Positions 17,736-27,267 of a stretch of DNA of 64,000 bases are shown one piece after another. Made by a program: the position numbers and the translations under genes. The notes beneath the pieces were generated by a model. The model made no database searches, was not told the origin of the DNA, and was given only the letters and a program-made list of their open reading frames with translations. The first letter of the stretch is position 1. Each line of letters starts with the position of its first letter. The DNA is from an uncultured Verrucomicrobiota bacterium (lineage in GTDB: Bacteria > Verrucomicrobiota > Verrucomicrobiia > Limisphaerales > UBA9464), in NCBI GenBank assembly GCA_903922605.1, contig CAIXUG010000081.1:17357-81356 (forward strand), read 5' to 3'.

Positions 17736-18665
17736 ATGTCTTCGACCGATGCCTCGCCGTGCCTGCTGCTCGTGGATGGCCATGCCTATGCCTACCGGGC
17801 GTTTCATGCCATCCGCTCGCTGAACGCGCCGGATGGCCGCCCCACGAACGCCATCTACGGCTTCGTGAAAATGCTGCAGAAGCTGGAGGCGACCGTGCGG
17901 CCGACGCACCGGCTCGTGGTGTGGGATGCCGGCCTCGCCGCCGAACGCATGGCCGCGTTGCCCGATTACAAGGCCAACCGTCCGCCAACGCCCGAAGCGC
18001 TCGATGAGCAACTGCCGCAGCTCCAGACGTGGCTGGCTGCCGCCGGTTGGGCCTCTCTGCAGGAAGAGGGGACGGAAGCCGACGACTGGCTGGCCACCTA
18101 TGCGCGCCGGGCGGAAGCGGCCGGCTGGCGCACGGTCCTTGCGAGTTCCGACAAGGACTTCATGCAGCTCGTGAACGACCGCATCGGCCTCTACAACCCG
18201 AACGACAAGTCCGAAAAAATCTGGGTCGCCGCCGACGTGGAGGCCAAGACCGGCGTGCAGCCGGCGCAGATCGTGGACTGGCTCAGCCTCGTCGGTGACA
18301 GTGTGGATAACATCCCCGGCGTGAAGGGCGTCGGCCCCAAGACGGCGACCGAACTGCTGAAGCGATTCGGCTCGGTGGAACAACTGGTCGCCCGGGCCGC
18401 CGAGCTGAAATCCGAGGCGCAGCGCGCCTCGGTGCAGGCGAGCGGCGAGATTCTCCGACGCAACCAGCTCATGATCCGCCTGCGGGACGACCTGGGCGGT
18501 GGCCATGCTCTCGAAGCGCTCGCGCCGCGTCCGCTGGAGAAACCGGCGCTTCGCGAGATGTATCGCCGCTGGAATTTCCGCAGCCTGCTTGCCGAGCTGG
18601 GCGAGGAGGCGCCGCCGGCTCCGGTGGTCCCGGTGGCACCGACACAGGGCGATCTTTTTGGTTAA
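17736..18665 (+). CDS. Stand-alone 5'-3' exonuclease / flap endonuclease (Pol I N-terminal domain family)
   Basis: LLLVDGHAYAYRAFHAI, SSDKDFMQLV, and H3TH DNIPGVKGVGPKTATELLKRFGSVEQL. Trimmed to the ATG at 17736. Confidence 0.88.
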   Translation: MSSTDASPCLLLVDGHAYAYRAFHAIRSLNAPDGRPTNAIYGFVKMLQKLEATVRPTHRLVVWDAGLAAERMAALPDYKANRPPTPEALDEQLPQLQTWLAAAGWASLQEEGTEADDWLATYARRAEAAGWRTVLASSDKDFMQLVNDRIGLYNPNDKSEKIWVAADVEAKTGVQPAQIVDWLSLVGDSVDNIPGVKGVGPKTATELLKRFGSVEQLVARAAELKSEAQRASVQASGEILRRNQLMIRLRDDLGGGHALEALAPRPLEKPALREMYRRWNFRSLLAELGEEAPPAPVVPVAPTQGDLFG

Positions 18666-21600
18666 GGCGCGGCGGCATCGCGGCGGAGCGAAATCACGCC
18701 GAGATTGATCAGACCGGTTGCGGGATTGTCCGCGACCGACAGCGGTATCGGTTCGGTGCGGGCGTTCGCCTGTGGCTTGCCGTCTGCATTCAGGGCGAAA
18801 CCGCCGAGTGTGACCACGTAGTCTCCTGGCTCAACCTCTTCGGCGAGCAGCGTTCCATCCGGTTGCTTGGCCATCATGAACTGCTTCATCGCCTTGGCGG
18901 CCTGCTGATGCTCGGGAACCAGCCACCATTGCTTCTCCGCCTCAGGGTTCTTTTCCACTTCGGGTGGCGGCATCGGGATCGGCGTGTGGACCGAGCCGTA
19001 GAACTGCCACGGCAGGGCGGATTCCTTCCCGTCGGTCAGGACCGCCCGGGCGATGACCCGGTAGCCGGTCCCGCCGAAGGTGACCGGCGTGGTCTCACCG
19101 GCACGGATGTCCACCTCCGTGCTGCGGGCGTGGCCCCAGCTGGTGTGGCCGTTCCCCATTTCGCTGCGGATGAGGCGGGTGAGCTTCACCCGACCCGGCG
19201 GCACTTGGTCATAGTGGAAATTTCCATCCCTGTCGGTGGTGGCCTTGAAGGCCGTGAAATCATACCGGAGCAGAGCACGGTTGCCTTCCATGCTCTCCAG
19301 CAGTACGTCCCGGTCGGCGGCTGGCTGGTCGCCGGACAACCACTTTCCCTCAATCTTTCCCCAAGGCTGCAGCGCCCAAGTGGTCTGTCCGGCGACAAAA
19401 TCGGTAGGCGGGGCTTGGGCAAAACCTTCGGGATGAACCGCGACCACCAGCGCCAGCGTGCCATCGCTGGGAAGGGCAAAGCGTCCGTTGCGGTCAGTCG
19501 TGACGAAAATGCTGCTCCGACCGTTGTAACGGCTGAAGCCGGTGAGGGTCAGCGTGGCCTGACCACCCGTGCTGATCAGGGCAACTTCCGCGTTGGCGGC
19601 AGGGCGTCCGTCGGGCTGCACGAGGGTGATGGTGGTCGTCTGGGCCGGGCGCAGCGCGACATCCAGTCGCACTTCTCCTTCGTCGGCGGCGATGACCCGC
19701 GTGACCAGAGGGGCAAACCCTTCCGATTCGAAGCGGAAGATGTAGCCCGGATTCTCCCCTCCCATGATGACCCCCTCTTCGAAGGTGTGGCGAAATTCCC
19801 CGTCCCCGAAACTCATGGAGAACCGCTCCAAGGGACTCCACGCCGGATTGGTCGTATGGGTGAGGAAATCGGCCTGAGGCCAGCCGGAAATGATCCGGAA
19901 CCGGGGTATGGTGGCTCCGCTCTGGGCGTCCCGTACGGAACCAAAGATGGTCAAAGCCGGGGGCAGGGTGACGGTGTGCTCCTGGCCGTCAGGACGGACC
20001 TTGTAATCGTCCACCCGGAAATGTCCTGTGGCCATGATGGAGAATACCAATTCCGTATCGGGGGCCTCTTCCCAAACCACCCTTCCATCGCTGTCGGAGC
20101 GCTTTTCCATCTCGGCTTGCAAGCGTGGCGGTTTCGACTGGTCGGGAGAGCCGATCTGGGGATCGAGCGTGCTCAGAACGACGTAAGCCTTGGCGATCGG
20201 CTGGCCGTCGTTACCTACAACGCGCAGGCGGAGCGTGTTGCCCGGTTTGAGCACCAGGCGGTAGGGGCCGGTCTTTTTCGCGAGGTTTATTTCCTCCGTG
20301 ACGGCCGCGTAGCCTTTGGCCTCGGCCGAGAGCAGATGGTCGGTGGGTTTGCAGCCCCGCAGCACAAAGCTTCCGTCGGGTCCGGCGGTTCCTTCGCGGC
20401 TGCCGCTCATGCCCACCATCCCGAGCCGCACCTTGGCCTCGGGGATCGGATTGCCGCTGGTGTCCTCCACCATGCCGGTGACCGTGGCTCCGCGTTGCAG
20501 GTGAAACACATATTTGCGCTGCCGCAGCGCCGTTTCCTCCGGCGACTTGGGCCGGATGGTGACGCTCTCCGAATCGACATAATCGGGGTGGGAAGCTCCG
20601 CCACCGGCATGCGGGAGTATGTCTTCCGCGAAACGATCAATCCGCCAGCGGCCCTGTTCATCCGTGGTGACCTGGAGCCAGAGAAATTCATGGGTTTCCG
20701 TCAGGGTGGCCGCCGACGGGATTTCCCCGTGCCCGAAGCTCACCTTGGCACCCGGCTGCGGCTTGCCCTCCGGATCAACCACCGTCCCACCAATGGGCAC
20801 GGCGCGTTCCAGCCGGAGCGTGTATGTCTCCGGCACGGCTTGGCCGTTCTCACGGTTCCATTTGAGGCAGGTGTCGGCGAAGCCGTCCAGACGGGTGGTG
20901 AGCCGGAGTTCCTTCGTATTGGTGGGATAGGTCACACGTACCGTGCCGTCGCGCTGCGAAAGGAATTTCGCATCGGTCACCCAGCCGCGCTCGACGACGA
21001 CGTTCGGGACGGGCTTTCCAGTGTCCGCCGTCAGCAAGATGAGCTTAAGATGGGCTTGCGTGGCGTCCTCGGCGGCAGTGGCCGCGGCTGTTTCGGTGTC
21101 ATTGGCAGGGATGACCGTTGCGGGCGGGGCGGTGCCGGCTTTGGATGCCGCTACGCCTGAGGCGACTTTGCCACCGTCCAAACGGCCAGGCTCGGTCCCG
21201 GAAGTAAACCAGGGCCGCACCACCGGCGTGAGCAACAGGGCGGCGACGGCGGCGGCGATGAGGACTTTGGTCTTAGTACGGGCCATAAGCATGAGGAGGG
21301 TGAGAATCAGTCCGCCACCGGTGGCCGCGCCGGCGAGGGCGGCCTGGCTGACGCGGGCGGCAAGTCCGGCGGGCACTTCGGCCATGGTCCGTTCCGCCAG
21401 CGCGGCACCGAGTGCGGCGGCCGTCGAAGTGAGCCCGCGGCGGGCCAACAACCCGCGCAGTTTGTCGAGGGCACGGTCCACCCGCATACGGGCGGCGTTT
21501 TCACCCACGCCGAGGCGCTCTCCCACCTCGGCGAGTGGGCACTTTTGGAAGAAGCGCAACAACACCGCCTCACGGTCGGAATCGCCCAGCTCGTGCATCG

Positions 21601-21973
21601 CCTCGTCCAACACGGGGCGGAGCTGGTCCCAATCGGGCACGGGCCCGTCGGACTGATGCAGATCCATCATATGGGCCTCCTGTTCGCGCTGGCGGCGGCG
21701 GTGCTCCTCCCGGCGTGCGTTGGCGGTGAGATAGCGCGTGCTGGTGTAGAGCCAGCCGGTGAGCGAGGTATGGCCGGTCAGATGAGCGGCCTTGCGGGCC
21801 AGGTCCGTGAACACCGCCTGCGTCACATCCTCCGCCGCGCCCGAGTCGCCATCCATCTGCCGCAAGGCCGCCGAGAAGACTAGCCCCACGTACCGGTCCA
21901 CCAGGTCGGCAAAGGCAGGCTCGGAACGTTCCGCCGCAAAGCGGCGCAGCAGCTCGTTGTCCGGCGGTGTCAT
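18662..21973 (-). CDS. ECF-type sigma-70 factor fused to a TM segment and an extracytoplasmic region of about 850 aa with carboxypeptidase-regulatory-like repeats
   Basis: Sigma region 2 (FADLVDRYVGLVFSAALRQM). Sigma region 4 (AVLLRFFQKCPLAEVGERLGVGENAARMRVDRALDKLRGLL). TM (TKVLIAAAVAALLLTPVV). Repeated motifs of the type GTVVDPEGKPQPGAKVSF, GMVEDTSGNPIPEAKVRL and LRVVGNDGQPIAKAYVVL. Confidence 0.85.
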   Translation of the reverse strand: MTPPDNELLRRFAAERSEPAFADLVDRYVGLVFSAALRQMDGDSGAAEDVTQAVFTDLARKAAHLTGHTSLTGWLYTSTRYLTANARREEHRRRQREQEAHMMDLHQSDGPVPDWDQLRPVLDEAMHELGDSDREAVLLRFFQKCPLAEVGERLGVGENAARMRVDRALDKLRGLLARRGLTSTAAALGAALAERTMAEVPAGLAARVSQAALAGAATGGGLILTLLMLMARTKTKVLIAAAVAALLLTPVVRPWFTSGTEPGRLDGGKVASGVAASKAGTAPPATVIPANDTETAAATAAEDATQAHLKLILLTADTGKPVPNVVVERGWVTDAKFLSQRDGTVRVTYPTNTKELRLTTRLDGFADTCLKWNRENGQAVPETYTLRLERAVPIGGTVVDPEGKPQPGAKVSFGHGEIPSAATLTETHEFLWLQVTTDEQGRWRIDRFAEDILPHAGGGASHPDYVDSESVTIRPKSPEETALRQRKYVFHLQRGATVTGMVEDTSGNPIPEAKVRLGMVGMSGSREGTAGPDGSFVLRGCKPTDHLLSAEAKGYAAVTEEINLAKKTGPYRLVLKPGNTLRLRVVGNDGQPIAKAYVVLSTLDPQIGSPDQSKPPRLQAEMEKRSDSDGRVVWEEAPDTELVFSIMATGHFRVDDYKVRPDGQEHTVTLPPALTIFGSVRDAQSGATIPRFRIISGWPQADFLTHTTNPAWSPLERFSMSFGDGEFRHTFEEGVIMGGENPGYIFRFESEGFAPLVTRVIAADEGEVRLDVALRPAQTTTITLVQPDGRPAANAEVALISTGGQATLTLTGFSRYNGRSSIFVTTDRNGRFALPSDGTLALVVAVHPEGFAQAPPTDFVAGQTTWALQPWGKIEGKWLSGDQPAADRDVLLESMEGNRALLRYDFTAFKATTDRDGNFHYDQVPPGRVKLTRLIRSEMGNGHTSWGHARSTEVDIRAGETTPVTFGGTGYRVIARAVLTDGKESALPWQFYGSVHTPIPMPPPEVEKNPEAEKQWWLVPEHQQAAKAMKQFMMAKQPDGTLLAEEVEPGDYVVTLGGFALNADGKPQANARTEPIPLSVADNPATGLINLGVISLRRDAAAP

Positions 21974-22119: not shown

Positions 22120-22671
22120 ATGATCTTCCGCATTGCCGAACCCGCCGATTGGGGCACCGCCCAGCAGACCGGCCATTTTGCCAGTCCGGACCTGGCCGCC
22201 GAGGGGTTCATCCATTTTTCGGCCCCTTCCCAGTTGCAGGGCGTTTCCGAACGTTATTACGCGCGGCGGACGGGCCTATGGCTGCTCGTGGTGGACGAAA
22301 GCCGCCTGACTGTCCCGGTCCGGTGGGAAAACACGACCGGTGGCACCGAATTGTTCCCGCATGTCTATGGCCCGGTGCCTCTGGAAGCGGTGGTGGCTCA
22401 TGCCCCGTTGCAGCGCGAGGCGGATGGCCGGATCGGTTGGCCCGAAGGATGGGGCGGCGGTTCGACGACGCAATGCCAGCTCTGCCAAAAGGCTGCGGCC
22501 ACGGTCCACTACACTTCGATTGTGGAGGAACAGGTCGTGGCCAAGGTGGACCTGTGCGAGGCCTGCGCACAGAAAAAGGGCGTGAACGACCCCGCGAGTT
22601 TCTCCTTGGCCGACCTGATACAGGGCCTGGGCGGTTCAGGTTCGGCGGGCAATCCGCCGACCCCGCCTTGA
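22120..22671 (+). CDS. DUF952 domain protein with a C-terminal duplicated McsA-type zinc-finger module
   Basis: The N-terminal 112 aa match the DUF952 pattern (MIFRIAEPADW...GFIHFS...LFPHVYGPVPLEAV). The C-terminal part, CQLCQKAAATVHYTSIVEEQVVAKVDLCEACAQKKGVNDPASFSLADL, is nearly identical to the N-terminus of the next gene. Confidence 0.8.
   Translation: MIFRIAEPADWGTAQQTGHFASPDLAAEGFIHFSAPSQLQGVSERYYARRTGLWLLVVDESRLTVPVRWENTTGGTELFPHVYGPVPLEAVVAHAPLQREADGRIGWPEGWGGGSTTQCQLCQKAAATVHYTSIVEEQVVAKVDLCEACAQKKGVNDPASFSLADLIQGLGGSGSAGNPPTPP
22471..22617 (+). repeat. Segmental duplication, copy 1 (McsA N-terminal zinc-finger coding segment)
   Basis: caatgccagctctgccaaaaggctgcggccacggtccactacac... 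aligns with 22714-22857 at roughly 80-85% identity with one extra codon. Confidence 0.85.
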
Positions 22672-22710
22672 CTTGGTGCGCTGCGGCGCTGATTTTGCGG
22701 CTGCTTTATC

Positions 22711-23217
22711 ATGCAATGCCAAGTCTGCAAAAAGGCCCCCGCCACGGTCCACTACACCTCGATTGTGGATAATCAGGTCAAGAAGGTGGACATGTGCGAG
22801 GCGTGCGCCCAGGAAAAGGGCGTGAACGACCCCGCCAGCTTCTCCCTGGCTGACCTGCTGCTGGGCCTGGGCGCCTCGCAAAAAATGGAAGAGGCGTCCA
22901 CCGCCGCCGGGGGCGACCAGAACTGCCCGCAGTGCGGTTTCACGCAGGCGGATTTCAAGAAATCGGGCCGGCTGGGGTGCTCGCACTGTTACGAGGTGTT
23001 TGCGGACGGCCTGGATGCGCTGCTGAAGGGCATGCACAAGGGCACCCACCACAAGGGCAAGGTGCCGGCCTCCCTGCGTCGGGCGACCGATGTGCGGGCC
23101 AAGATGACCAAGCTCGAAGCCGATCTGAAGGCGGCGATCGGTCGCGAAGATTTCGAACTGGCCGCCACCCTGCGCGACGAGATCAAGCAGGCGAAGAAGG
23201 CGGAGGCGGAGGTTTAA
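22711..23217 (+). CDS. mcsA: Protein-arginine kinase activator (UvrB/UvrC-motif protein)
   Basis: Two Cys4 fingers (CQVCKK...CEAC and CPQCG...CSHC) plus a C-terminal UVR motif (REDFELAATLRDEIKQAK). It lies directly upstream of mcsB. Confidence 0.88.
   Translation: MQCQVCKKAPATVHYTSIVDNQVKKVDMCEACAQEKGVNDPASFSLADLLLGLGASQKMEEASTAAGGDQNCPQCGFTQADFKKSGRLGCSHCYEVFADGLDALLKGMHKGTHHKGKVPASLRRATDVRAKMTKLEADLKAAIGREDFELAATLRDEIKQAKKAEAEV
22714..22857 (+). repeat. Segmental duplication, copy 2 (native 5' end of mcsA)
   Basis: See copy 1. The spacing between copies is about 243 bp. Confidence 0.85.
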
Positions 23218-23323
23218 CCGCTGATCTACACTAATAGGGGCACAATAAACACGCCTTAAACTAACGTCTCGTCCTCATTTCAATCAGTGCAGATGAGTGC
23301 CGATTAGCGGTTTGGCTTTTCCA

Positions 23324-24418
23324 ATGAACGTCCTCGATTTCCTCATCACGCCGGCCGAGGCGTGCCAGCGCAGCGGGCCGAACGACAAAATCGTCTTCTC
23401 CAGCCGCGTCCGGCTCGCCCGCAACCTCAAGGGCGTGCCGTTTCCCGGCCACGCCAAGAAGGCCGACCGGTTGAAGTCCCTCGAAACGCTCGTACCCGCC
23501 GTGTCCGGTTTGCCGCAAATGGGCACGGACCCGTTCGCCGAGGCGATGGACAAGCTCACCGCGCTCGACAAGCAGATCCTCGTTGAGCGTCACCTGATCA
23601 GCCGCGAGCACGCCGCCAAGGGCGTCGGCAGCGGCTTCGTCCTGAACAAGGACGAAACCGTCTGCGTGATGGTGAACGAGGAGGACCACCTGCGGATGCA
23701 GGCGCTGCGTCCGGGCCTCCAGCTCAAGCAGGCGTGGATGGCAATCGACGGCGTGGATTCGTCGCTGCAGGAAAAGGTGGAGTTCGCCTTCTCCGACCAG
23801 TACGGCTTTCTCACGGCGTGCCCCACGAATCTGGGCACGGGCATCCGCGTGAGCGCCATGCTGCATCTGCCCGGCCTTGTGCTCGCGGAGCAGATCAACC
23901 AGATCATCCAGGCGGTGAACAAGCTCGGCCTGGCCGTGCGCGGGCTCTATGGCGAGGGTACCGAAGCGTTGGGCAACATCTTCCAGGTCTCCAACCAGAT
24001 GACTCTGGGCGAGACCGAGGGCGAGATCGTCGAGCGCATCAACAAGGTGCTGCTCCAGATCATCGAGCACGAGGAGAACGCCCGCCTGGCACAGCTGGAG
24101 AAGAAGCCCAAGGTGCTCTTCAACCACATCGGCCGGGCCTATGGCGGGCTCTCGCATTCGCACATCATCACCTCGAAGGAGACGATGAACCTGCTCAGCC
24201 TGCTGCGGCTGGGGGTTGATCTGGGCATGTTCGGTTCGACGCCAAAATCGCTCGTGGATGAGCTGTTCCTGCTGAGCCAGCCGGGACACCTCCAGATTGG
24301 TCATCCCGAGAAACTGGATGCCGAGGTCCGTGACGCGCTGCGGGCGGAGCTGCTGCGCCAGCGCATGAAGGTGGTGCCGCCTCCGGATCATACCGGGGTG
24401 GTGCCGAGGCCGGCCTAA
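23324..24418 (+). CDS. mcsB: Protein arginine kinase (ATP:guanido phosphotransferase)
   Basis: Signature CPTNLGTGIRVSAMLHLPGL and NEEDHLRMQ. The ORF opens at 23297 (GTG) and the ATG at 23324 (MNVLDFL) is preferred. Confidence 0.92.
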   Translation: MNVLDFLITPAEACQRSGPNDKIVFSSRVRLARNLKGVPFPGHAKKADRLKSLETLVPAVSGLPQMGTDPFAEAMDKLTALDKQILVERHLISREHAAKGVGSGFVLNKDETVCVMVNEEDHLRMQALRPGLQLKQAWMAIDGVDSSLQEKVEFAFSDQYGFLTACPTNLGTGIRVSAMLHLPGLVLAEQINQIIQAVNKLGLAVRGLYGEGTEALGNIFQVSNQMTLGETEGEIVERINKVLLQIIEHEENARLAQLEKKPKVLFNHIGRAYGGLSHSHIITSKETMNLLSLLRLGVDLGMFGSTPKSLVDELFLLSQPGHLQIGHPEKLDAEVRDALRAELLRQRMKVVPPPDHTGVVPRPA

Positions 24419-24732: not shown

Positions 24733-27267
24733 ATGAGCGAAGAGAACATGAACAACTTCACGCCCCGCGCGCAGCAGGTCCTCGCACTTGCGCGCAAGGA
24801 GGCGGACCGCTTCAACCACAATTTCGTGGGCACGGAGCACCTGCTGCTCGGGCTGATCAAGCTCGGCCAGGGTGTCGCCGTGAACGTGCTCCAACGCATG
24901 GGGCTCGACCTCGAGAACGTGCGCCAGGAAGTGGAGAAGGAAGTCCGCGGCGGTGCCGAGGGCAAGGTCAGCGGCAACATCCCCTACACGCCCCGCGTGA
25001 AGAAGGTGCTGTCGCTCGCCGCCAAGGAGGCCAAGGCGCTCAATCACACCTACGTCGGCACCGAGCACATCCTGCTCGGCCTGCTGCGCGAGGGTGACGG
25101 CGTCGCCGCGAAGGTGCTGAAGAACCTCGACGTGGACATCGAGCTTTGCCGGCAGGAGATTCTCAAGGAGCTCGACCCGGGCTTCCAGCAGAACGAGGGC
25201 GAAGAGGCACCGCCTTCCGAAAATCCCAGCGAACCGGTGAAGGCCGGCGGGGTGGCCAAGGGCGAGAACGGCAAGAAGGAACTCAAGACTCCCGCGCTCA
25301 AGGCATTTGGCCGTGATCTCACGGAACTCGCCAAGAAGGGCGAGATGGACCCGGTCATCGGCCGTACGAGCGAGATCGAACGGGTGATCCAAATTCTCTG
25401 CCGCCGCACCAAGAACAACCCCGTGCTCCTCGGTGAGGCGGGCGTGGGCAAGACGGCCATCGTCGAAGGACTCGCCCAGGAAATCTCCCGGGGCGGGGTG
25501 CCGGAGATTCTCGCGAACAAGCGCGTCATCACGCTCGACCTGGCGCTGATGGTCGCGGGCACGAAGTATCGCGGCCAGTTCGAGGAGCGCATCAAGGCGG
25601 TGATGGACGAGATCCGGAAGGCCAAGAACGTCATCCTCTTCATCGACGAGCTGCACACCATCGTCGGCGCCGGTTCGGCCGAGGGCACGATGGACGCCTC
25701 GAACATTTTCAAGCCGGCCCTCAGCCGTGGTGAGCTGCAGATCGTGGGCGCCACGACGATCAACGAGTACCGCAAGTACATCGAGAAGGACTCCGCGCTG
25801 GAGCGCCGCTTCCAGACCGTGAAGGTCGAGCCGCCCAGCATCGACGATGCGATCACGATCCTCAACGGCCTGAAGCCGAAGTACGAGGAGCACCACAAGG
25901 CCGAGTTCTCCGCCGAGGCGATCAATGCCTGCGTGCGGCTCAGCGACCGCTATATCACCGCCCGTTTCCTGCCGGACAAGGCCATCGACGTCATGGACGA
26001 GGCCGGTTCCAAGGCCCGTATCGGCGCATTGCAGCGCCCGCCCAACGTCAAGGACGTCGAGGCCGAGATCGAGGTTCTGAAGACGCGCAAGGAACAGGCG
26101 ATCAAGGACCAGGACTTCGAGGGGGCCGCCCAGCTGCGCGACCAGGAAAAGGCCGCCAAGGAGCGGTTGGAAAAGACCCTCGCCGAGTGGAAAACCGCGA
26201 AGGACGAGCGCCGGGTCAAGGTCTCCGAGGACGACATCATGCATGTGGTTGCCAAGTGGACCGGCATTCCGCTGCAGCGCATGGGCCAGGACGAGACCCA
26301 GAAGCTGCTCATGGTCGAGAAGGAGCTTTCCAAGGTCGTCATCGGCCAGAGAGACGCCGTGGGGGCATTGGCCAAGGCGCTGCGCCGCGCCCGGGCCGAC
26401 CTCAAGGACCCGAAGCGCCCGATTGGCTGCTTTGCGCTGCTCGGGCCGACCGGTGTCGGCAAGACCCTGCTCGCCCGTACGCTGGCCGAACAGATGTTCG
26501 GCTCGGTGCAGAACCTCATCCAGCTCGACATGAGCGAGTACATGGAGAAGTTCACGGTGAGCCGGCTCATCGGTTCGCCGCCCGGCTATGTCGGGTACGA
26601 GGAAGGTGGCCAGCTCACCGAGAAGGTGCGCCGCCAGCCCTATTCCGTCGTGCTCTTCGACGAGATCGAAAAAGCGCATCCCGACGTGATGAACATGCTG
26701 CTCCAGATCCTGGAGGAGGGCAAACTGACCGACTCGCTCGGCCGCACGATCGATTTCCGCAACACGATCATCCTGCTCACGTCGAACGTCGGCTCGGAGG
26801 TGCTGCGCAAGACCAACACGCTCGGCTTCGCCAAGCAGAGCGACACCACCGATTACGAGACGATGCGGGGCCGGACGCTCGAAGAGGCCAAGAAGGCCTT
26901 CCGGCCCGAGTTTCTCAACCGGCTCGACGACATCATCGTCTTCCGGACACTGGGCAAGCCGGAGCTGGTGCAGATCCTCGAGCTCGAGGTGAAGAAGGTG
27001 CTCGAACGCATGGCCCGCAAGAACGTGGTGGTGACGCTGGACGACAAGGCGAAGGACCTGCTCATCGAAAAGGGTTTCGATCCGCAGTACGGCGCCCGGC
27101 CGATGCGCCGCGCCGTGGAGAAGTACCTCGAAGACCCGTTGGCGGAGGAAATCCTGCGCGGCTCGCTCTCGGACGGCCAACCGGTCGCGGTGAGCGCCGA
27201 CAAGGAGAAACTCACGTTCGCGCAGCAGACCAGCATTGTCTCGGGCCAGGCTCCGGTCGCGAACTGA
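24733..27267 (+). CDS. clpC: ATP-dependent Clp protease ATP-binding subunit ClpC
   Basis: Double Clp-R N-domain ([33 protein letters not shown], repeated). Two Walker A motifs (GEAGVGKT and GPTGVGKT). UVR-like linker ([17 protein letters not shown]). Length 844 aa. Confidence 0.96.

Follow-up and report, generated by a model that had tools for sequence, protein, structure and literature searches.

A 64,000-nucleotide stretch of a contig from an uncultured Verrucomicrobiota bacterium (CAIXUG010000081.1; hereafter the window) carries, directly upstream of mcsA, a chimeric open reading frame (ORF) of 183 amino acids (aa) in which a DUF952 domain is joined to a copy of the first zinc-coordinating domain of McsA. 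We refer to the first and second zinc-coordinating domains of McsA as Z1 and Z2 and to the two copies of the underlying repeat as c1 and c2; L-numbers designate comparison loci and P-numbers comparison proteins. The chimera is a young gene that originated when the mcsA 5′ end was duplicated in tandem and fused to DUF952 by read-through, and it is restricted to one narrow clade of freshwater Verrucomicrobia. Because at least four other lineages independently gained and conserved Z1 alone, we lean toward a reading (with a probability of roughly 0.55) in which the selected unit is an extra Z1 supplied in trans and not the fusion itself. The fusion to DUF952 may be secondary.

A chimeric gene formed from the mcsA 5′ end

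A repeat search detected two in-register direct-repeat blocks in the window, the first pairing 22454–22536 with 22697–22779 (83 nt, 80% identity, spacing 243) and the second pairing 22543–22633 with 22783–22873 (91 nt, 88% identity, spacing 240). The spacing shifts by 3 nt because of a one-codon indel, and the two blocks together form one tandem repeat of ~180 nt (repeat families D1 and D2, assigned to no strand), with c1 at 22454–22633 and c2 at 22697–22873. The second copy consists of the native mcsA leader and codons 1–54, with the mcsA ATG 14 nt past its start. The mcsA gene (22711–23217, + strand) is full length and encodes a 168-aa protein with Z1, Z2 (Cys 71/74/89/92), loop L3 and a UVR coiled coil; it is identified by matches to NCBIfam McsA (E 2e-43), Pfam UVR and PDB 8WTB (E 1e-28), and it begins 40 nt from the end of the chimera. 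BLASTP between the two ORF products gives 36/45 identities (80%, E=5e-23), far above chance. A preliminary description of this DNA had claimed a segmental duplication of the native mcsA 5′ end with a one-codon indel, and both features are recovered here, with a repeat of ~180 nt at 80–88% identity rather than ~145 bp.

The chimeric ORF (22120–22671, + strand), established from the ORF list and from Pfam and NCBIfam matches, is open across its four segments, and c1 does lie in frame behind DUF952, as had been proposed. Residues 1–111 (22120–22452, + strand) are a CC0527-type DUF952 domain of ADP-ribosyltransferase (ART) fold, recognized through Pfam PF06108 and PDB 2O0Q, and correspond to the whole length of unfused DUF952 orthologues. 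Alignment of c1 and c2 with their flanks places a GGGSTT linker at 22453–22470 (+ strand). The Z1 copy follows as aa 118–171 (22471–22633, + strand), delimited by the repeats, by BLASTP and by NCBIfam McsA positions 2–57. Comparison with the unfused locus L003 (alignment A7) assigns 22634–22671 (+ strand) to a tail, GSGSAGNPPTPP, and the stop codon.

The DUF952 domain is complete. Residues 5–93 score 97.9 bits against PF06108 (cutoff 23.7) over profile positions 1–89 of 90, and the domain matches 2O0Q by sequence at E 6e-14. A Foldseek search with its structural model returns 2O0P/2O0Q (E 7e-9, template modeling (TM) score 0.80), with weaker matches to ADP-ribosylating toxins and DarT. DUF952 has been placed in the ART superfamily on the basis of an H-H-h signature, with its function unknown (PMC8120803, PMC7955679), and a role in small-molecule ADP-ribosylation has been proposed (PMC8120803). 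The signature is intact in the chimera (GFIHFS, with H32 and S34, and FPHVYG, with H81). F30, H81 and G84 are invariant among relatives in alignments A2 and A6, while H32 shows no variation in A2 and at least 90% conservation in A6. At position 84, one chimera allele, P0001 (L165:1424–1975 and L166:1460–2011; 4 contigs), has Asp where the aligned DUF952 sequences have an invariant Gly.

All four cysteines of the Z1 copy (C119, C122, C146 and C149) are present as CxxC...CxxC, bearing out the earlier statement that both copies keep them, and the copy has one codon more than its mcsA counterpart. Chimera residues 118–170 cover positions 2–57 of NCBIfam McsA (NF053706), including the CxxC-x23-CxxC of Z1. 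The chimera as a whole scores 34.3 bits against the NF053706 cutoff of 210, a threshold set on Bacillota sequences that native McsA, at 148 bits, likewise falls under; Pfam has no model for Z1. Homology to McsA stops at McsA residue 54–55. The chimera contains no second CxxC pair, so Z2 and L3 are absent, and no Pfam UVR match, of which native McsA has one. Codon-position GC is coding-like in the Z1 copy (63/47/79%), and codon periodicity is absent from the tail.

Structure prediction with AlphaFold2, in which Z1 and the full chimera were modeled from separate alignments (A5 and A6), gives a predicted local distance difference test (pLDDT) score of about 90–97 for DUF952 (aa 1–110) and below 50 for the linker (aa 113–116). 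The zinc module is modeled as a β-hairpin and helix (pLDDT 55–69) and the tail (aa 172–183) as disordered (pLDDT <50). The predicted product would comprise an intact ART-fold DUF952 domain, a flexible Gly-rich linker, a Z1 zinc ribbon and a disordered tail.

The pre-fusion arrangement is found at the syntenic locus L003, which has the same neighbors as the window. Here a 111-aa DUF952 gene ends in its own stop and is followed by a 122-nt spacer, mcsA with a single Z1, mcsB, clpC and YdjC. Set against L003, the DUF952 stop and the initial ~44 nt of the spacer are missing from the window. They are replaced by a copy of mcsA codons 1–54 with their leader (about −22 to −1), after which come the remaining spacer and the intact mcsA. 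The linker derives from ~18 nt 5′ of the mcsA start together with the former start codon, which has changed from ATG to ACG at 22468–22470. The L001 copy still reads ...STM, with the former ATG in frame inside the fusion, where the window has ACG, and 19 of the 23 nt upstream of L001 c1 match L001's own mcsA leader. The last 12 residues of the chimera and its stop codon are one-time spacer DNA, the 5′ part of the duplicated unit.

The simplest history for this arrangement would involve two steps. A tandem duplication of ~240 bp (77 nt of spacer plus 163 nt of mcsA) would have generated a stand-alone Z1 ORF, and a deletion of ~100 nt between GAT and GCGGC microhomologies would then have joined Z1 to DUF952. 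One template-switching event could alternatively have given an equal outcome. GAT and GGCG microhomologies are present at the junctions.

In other Verrucomicrobia, mcsA is preceded by an aminotransferase class IV gene. Its 3′ end can be aligned with the spacer (window 22634–22710; L003:6337–6458), sharing an invariant CTTGAC core (alignment A7), and both spacer and tail are likely a relic of that gene. Such an origin would make the adjacency of DUF952 and mcsA secondary, the result of an older rearrangement. A TTGACT hexamer that holds the chimera stop had been considered as the −35 box of an mcsA promoter and was withdrawn, since it aligns as part of the aminotransferase relic (...YRALTK...); a promoter scan yielded no usable candidate.

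The window, L004 and L001 have both junctions in common, as well as the extra codon, several c1-specific substitutions and a distance of 591 nt from the chimera start to the mcsA start. These shared features indicate that the chimera carriers go back to one origin.

Database searches delimit this group narrowly. The exact 183-aa protein occurs on four contigs from different assemblies (ENA, NCBI and Logan), the 99% identical P0001 on four contigs and a third intact allele, P0265, on one; P0263 has the same 183-aa architecture as the window protein, P0001 and P0265. A more diverged form, P0002 (loci L001 and L002), is also 183 aa long, 79% identical and present on four contigs. Intact carriers have a common gene order of a minus-strand sigma-70 fusion protein of ~1100 aa, the chimera, mcsA and mcsB. 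The nearest genome record, L004, is a Verrucomicrobia metagenome-assembled genome from a Swedish lake. In a collection of 5.8 billion protein clusters, the chimera forms only two clusters, both of 183 aa, and other close DUF952 relatives (58–82% identity) are all 111–113 aa long.

Wider searches returned the same picture. An exhaustive HMMER search against 1.84 billion representatives found 3967 relatives, with DUF952 and a McsA-type finger combined in none of the best 150; the longer DUF952 proteins inspected among these 150 owe their length to unrelated domains or extensions. JGI metagenome contigs yielded no additional chimera when scanned, and long tblastn matches at L086, L089, L094, L137 and L149 were rejected as spurious extensions. 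Among 162 loci with a Z1 match, a set to which L169–L172 do not belong, two copies are present only in the chimera carriers and in L154. The suggestion that the DUF952–McsA N-terminus combination had gone unreported agrees with these searches, which find it in this clade alone. P0190, a 283-aa protein, combines DUF952 with a different Cys-rich (B-box or RING-like) C-terminal region and is an unrelated zinc-finger fusion.

Could a collapsed or expanded repeat, or a stop missed in assembly or sequencing, account for the chimera? The source data are metagenome assemblies, and some short 'Z1-only' database proteins are frameshifted mcsA (L173), both of which speak for caution. The two copies, however, differ at about 16% of positions, which is incompatible with a mis-assembled single copy, and the same structure recurs, in four allelic forms, across several samples and assemblers that are independent of one another. 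We consider the probability of an artefact to be negligible.

Stand-alone Z1 copies in other Verrucomicrobia

Since a Z1 profile search returned many proteins of ≤100 aa that are mostly fragments or frameshifted mcsA, we counted a lineage only if its tandem repeat could be verified and an intact mcsA followed. Four lineages qualify, represented by three long contigs and L154. In L154, a Z1-only ORF of 69 aa (2489–2698) is associated with a 179-nt repeat (82% identity, spacing 210), and the ratio of nonsynonymous to synonymous substitution rates (dN/dS), calculated here for each copy against its own parental Z1, is 0.12 (dS 0.75). The ORF of L169/L170 (P0290; L169:2501–2698) is 65 aa long, with a 160-nt repeat (91% identity, spacing 204) and a dN/dS of 0.08 (dS 0.52). 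L171 encodes a 74-aa ORF (P0385; 1840–2064) with a 239-nt repeat (79% identity, spacing 261) and a dN/dS of 0.14 (dS 0.75), and L172 a 76-aa ORF (P0372; 2501–2731) with a 235-nt repeat (95% identity, spacing 265) and a dN/dS of 0.18 (dS 0.10).

Gene order is the same at all four loci: an Aminotran_4 gene, the Z1-only ORF, mcsA and mcsB. A clpC gene is visible after mcsB in L172, and the L154 contig ends before that point. The duplicated unit takes in 43–75 nt of the aminotransferase 3′ end in L171 and L172, and in L154 and L169 the stop of the copy lies 6 nt ahead of the mcsA ATG. Each stand-alone copy is nearest to its own parent. The differing junctions and the closeness of each copy to its parent point to separate events, and on these grounds Z1 has been tandemly duplicated independently in at least four other lineages. 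The dN/dS values of 0.08–0.18 reveal clear purifying selection on the free-standing domain.

These small ORFs are automatically named 'protein arginine kinase activator' in some databases, and no description of them was found in literature searches that were not aimed at them. Short entries of that name are often contig-end fragments or frameshifted or truncated mcsA from error-prone assemblies (for example P0353, which is L173 (L173:2501–2970), P0282, P0333, P0336, P0306 and P0297) and would inflate a naive census of Z1-only genes. Certain substitutions recur at McsA positions 4, 35 and 54 in the extra Z1 copies of L001, L154, L169, L171, L172 and the window. As plain counts, these are G54R three times, G54D once, G54A once, E35K twice and Cys4-to-Ser twice, and they could represent convergence or a relaxed C-terminal end.

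The DUF952–Z1 combination and the recurrent stand-alone Z1 paralogue are both new: no library of protein families that was searched has an entry for either, and the literature consulted mentions neither. Both domains are known, as is the birth of genes through duplication and fusion. The preliminary description had centered on the fusion, and the independent, DUF952-free duplications move the emphasis to the extra Z1. Repeated duplication and retention of Z1, as at least four separate small proteins and one DUF952 fusion, argues for a Z1 activity in trans.

Constraint and function of the fused copy

The window protein, P0001, P0265 and P0002 have all retained the four cysteines as well as the motifs ATVHYT, KVDLCEAC and GVNDPASFSLADL. 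Of 24 conserved positions (those ≥90% conserved across 76 distinct McsA Z1 sequences), 2 carry replacements in the copies, compared with 16 of the 31 variable ones (Fisher p=0.001, Mann-Whitney p=0.0005). Between c1 and c2 of the window, dN is 0.12 and dS 0.45. The parental mcsA Z1 is nearly invariant (dN 0–0.024), so almost all replacements would fall on the branch of the copy, whose dN/dS we infer to be roughly 0.5. Comparisons between orthologues give 0.21–0.75 for the copy, 0.10–0.26 for DUF952 and 0.01–0.05 for mcsB. The Z1 fold has evidently been kept through most of the history of the copy. The earlier claim of selection over decay thus survives in part: the excess of synonymous change and the distribution of replacements support it, but the constraint is weaker than implied, the copy evolves faster and one allele carries a premature stop.

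That allele has TGA in place of TGC at the first cysteine codon (C119; L004:6355–6357, equivalent to window 22474–22476) and is found in L004 and also in L164. P0265 is its sister, with an identical DUF952 part and an intact Z1. The ORF is accordingly open on contigs of different assemblies but interrupted on the 11 contigs with the TGA allele. Selenocysteine recoding of the TGA in L004 was considered and judged unlikely. A hairpin 17 nt past the TGA has z = −3.85 in L004, compared with −1.75 in the window allele and −1.55 in the L001 allele; it is not conserved, its apical loop is without the usual G, and the window holds no tRNA. We treat the L004 TGA as a nonsense allele. Constraint is weaker on the fused copy than on the stand-alone copies and the null allele is common, from which we conclude, on sequence grounds, that at least one population, in which the null allele is segregating, can do without the function of the Z1 copy.

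Dispensability raises the alternative that DUF952 alone is functional and that the Z1 extension is a neutral by-product, tolerated until mutation removes it. A common null allele with its stop at the first zinc ligand fits this account, as does the comparison of P0265 with L004, in which DUF952 is identical while the 66-residue extension has four aa differences and the stop. It is also favored by the elevated dN/dS (0.5–0.75 in comparisons with L001), by a disordered tail that was recruited from non-coding DNA and has no codon periodicity, and by the limitation of the chimera to a very small clade. Yet replacements avoid the family-conserved positions (p=0.001), and the cysteines and motifs survive a dS of ~0.3 between the c1 copies of the window and L001 and of ~0.45 between c1 and c2. 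Two lineages with 79% identity have moreover both kept the frame at exactly 183 aa, and the independent stand-alone duplicates are clearly constrained. We regard a neutral origin and persistence of the extension as a real but doubtful possibility.

What an extra Z1 might do can be considered in light of characterized McsA proteins. In Bacillus subtilis, Z2 and loop L3 bind and activate McsB, and Z1 is invisible in crystals (PMC11046695); a cryogenic electron microscopy structure of the Staphylococcus aureus McsA–McsB complex agrees on Z2–L3 (PMC12467219). Deletion of Z1 or of the coiled coil abolishes large McsAB oligomers, the purpose of which the authors call unclear (PMC11046695). When Z1 is deleted, McsB autophosphorylation also falls by about 75%, unless the coiled coil is removed as well; CtsR phosphorylation, for which Z1 is dispensable, hardly changes (PMC11046695).

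Z1 has a relative in the unfoldase ClpE and a possible one in ClpG. A Z1 profile (alignment A3, chimera copies included) matches residues 1–35 of ClpE (PDB 29hb) at E 9e-6, and a single McsA sequence matches the ClpE N-terminal zinc domain at E 1e-3. With the Z1 model as query, Foldseek ranks the ClpG N1 domain first (8p66_B; probability 0.97, TM score 0.57 by target, root-mean-square deviation 1.8 Å over 38 columns), but at E 0.25 and with a mean pLDDT of only 63 for the Z1 model. The ClpE NN subdomain, reportedly a homologue of ClpG N1, is important for casein binding, and ClpG N1 binds aggregates (PMC13125188).

The preliminary description had suggested that McsB might have a competing or alternative partner or adaptor in the chimera, which is read here as a partner or activator operating at the kinase. 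It does encode a genuine McsA-derived zinc finger, right upstream of mcsA-mcsB-clpC. McsB, however, is bound and activated via Z2 and L3, with Z1 unseen in the complex (PMC11046695, PMC12467219) and dispensable for CtsR phosphorylation (PMC11046695), whereas the chimera extends only to the counterpart of McsA residue 54–55, lacks Z2, L3 and the coiled coil, and reaches 34 bits of the NCBIfam McsA cutoff of 210. A copy without Z2–L3 implies that the chimera is no McsB activator. With only Z1 duplicated and the kinase contact lying in Z2–L3, we consider a role at the kinase very unlikely indeed.

The extra Z1 would instead act through the normal contact partner of Z1. One candidate is the higher-order McsA–McsB assembly that depends on Z1 and the coiled coil; another is the binding of non-native clients, as with the homologous zinc domains of ClpE and ClpG. 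Through either contact, the McsAB–ClpC machinery could be tuned, capped or decorated. The most likely mode of action would be interference with, or participation in, a Z1-dependent McsAB–ClpC step, not kinase activation.

DUF952 in this clade could then be either a passenger that provides a translation start or a tethered cargo. If the fusion were adaptive, a Rosetta-stone link in which Z1 docks the ART-like DUF952 domain onto McsAB/ClpC or its clients, several features would be accommodated. In the wider clade, DUF952 genes as little as about 61% identical still lie directly 5′ of mcsA (L003, L005–L009), and the chimera has an intact DUF952 domain under constraint. A35 and W69 are common to the chimera alleles, in contrast to E35 and R69 in close unfused relatives, and the window lineage has lost the internal start (now ACG), so that Z1 could be made only as a fusion. 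But DUF952 is absent from the other four Z1 duplications, its adjacency to mcsA looks historical, with the spacer an aminotransferase 3′ relic, and more distant DUF952 genes are not beside mcsA (P0026, P0034, L013). DUF952 is also widespread in bacteria, with a proposed role in small-molecule ADP-ribosylation (PMC8120803), and the null allele removes Z1 alone, leaving DUF952 intact. An adaptive fusion is thus an unlikely explanation. The recurrence without DUF952, the historical adjacency and the null allele that hits only Z1 lead us to lean toward DUF952 as a passenger rather than a tethered enzyme.

The DUF952 fold is a Tpt1/KptA-like H-H-h fold, and characterized relatives put ADP-ribose onto phosphate groups. 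By analogy, a true functional link might consist of a Z1-docked DUF952 acting on phospho-arginine marks, on McsAB or on clients by NAD+-dependent chemistry, an idea we rate as highly improbable. If it were correct, it would give a first functional context to a widespread ART-fold family of unknown function, although the evidence is weak, and it would tie NAD+-dependent chemistry to arginine phosphorylation as a degradation tag. In that event, the stand-alone Z1 mini-proteins would be a new class of trans-acting McsAB–ClpC regulators.

Selection for an extra Z1 in trans remains the reading we prefer, and several observations weigh against it. The product of the null allele (P0264, 118 aa) is found on 11 contigs, more than any single intact allele. 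Orthologous c1 copies have dN/dS values of 0.21–0.75, compared with 0–0.11 for mcsA Z1, meaning that the copy evolves several-fold faster; the c1 values rest on ~56 codons and are imprecise, and the comparison of the window with L001 is compatible with dN/dS = 1. The likeness to ClpG N1 depends on a low-confidence model (mean pLDDT 63) and a non-significant E-value. McsAB homologues of Gram-negative bacteria are uncharacterized (PMC11046695). Finally, unfused L003 is not clearly outside the chimera group in gene trees (neighbor-joining bootstrap 19–46%), and its placement means that a single origin needs a trichotomy or allele exchange. The dS values suggest that L003 is nested among the carriers; shared derived DUF952 residues suggest that it is not.

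For work on Clp and McsAB proteostasis, the locus offers a natural handle on the unexplained Z1, with functional evidence in the window that is mixed. Z1-only proteins together with their cognate McsA, McsB and ClpC are ready reagents for studying this puzzling first zinc finger of McsA. The window also forms part of an unusually complete record of gene birth: assemblies of related freshwater metagenomes contain the pre-fusion state, two diverged lineages in which the chimera is intact, and a null allele.

Neighboring genes and related protein families

Downstream of mcsA, the window encodes the protein arginine kinase McsB (23324–24418, + strand; Pfam ATP-gua_Ptrans, E 1e-66), which scores 387 bits against NCBIfam NF002194 (cutoff 385). 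An in-frame GTG at 23297, upstream of the mcsB ATG at 23324 (window 23297–23326), would open a longer ORF that is probably not used, as orthologues align from the ATG. The next gene, clpC (24733–27267, + strand), encodes Clp_N, two AAA+ modules and a UVR middle domain, all identified with Pfam. Divergent from the chimera on the − strand (18662–21973) lies a gene for a 1103-aa protein with an N-terminal sigma-70 region of the extracytoplasmic function (ECF) type and CarboxypepD_reg-like repeats. Two tandem paralogues of this gene are present in L003 (L003:1–5869), and the upstream region differs in L004. A scan of the window against Rfam found zero RNA families, and the window contains no tRNA.

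Compared with McsA (NF053706; 8WTB/8WTC, 8GQD), the chimera carries at aa 118–171 a recent paralogue of Z1, with 80% aa identity, the same CxxC...CxxC ligands and the same conserved flanking motif. It is without Z2, loop L3 and the UVR coiled coil, the parts responsible for McsB binding, activation and regulation, and bears an unrelated N-terminal domain. Compared with DUF952/CC0527 proteins (PF06108, ADP-ribosyltransferase clan; 2O0P, 2O0Q, 2JQN), it has the full-length domain and the H-x-S...H signature, but ends at 183 aa where ordinary close relatives end at 111–113. No other DUF952 protein inspected has a McsA-type finger; other DUF952 fusions are to unrelated domains, among them an acetyltransferase, a methyltransferase, SEC-C and a different Cys-rich domain.

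The NN subdomain of ClpE (29hb) and the N1 domain of ClpG (8p66) provide a further parallel. Each is a small C4 zinc domain with the shared pattern MxCxxC..AtvHl....k..lCe.C, is located N-terminally in a Clp quality-control protein and belongs to a domain type that is modular across several architectures. In ClpE and ClpG, a covalent link joins the zinc domain to the AAA+ motor, and the domain contributes to binding unfolded or aggregated clients, whereas the Z1 copy described here is attached to an ART-fold domain or, in related loci, stands alone. The proposed homology to ClpG N1 draws on a weak structural match.

The stand-alone Z1 ORFs are the closest counterparts of the chimera, which they resemble in origin, in their position upstream of mcsA-mcsB and in their retained zinc ligands. 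They differ from it in having a start codon of their own and no fusion partner, in lying downstream of an aminotransferase class IV gene instead of DUF952, and in being under stronger purifying selection (dN/dS 0.08–0.18).

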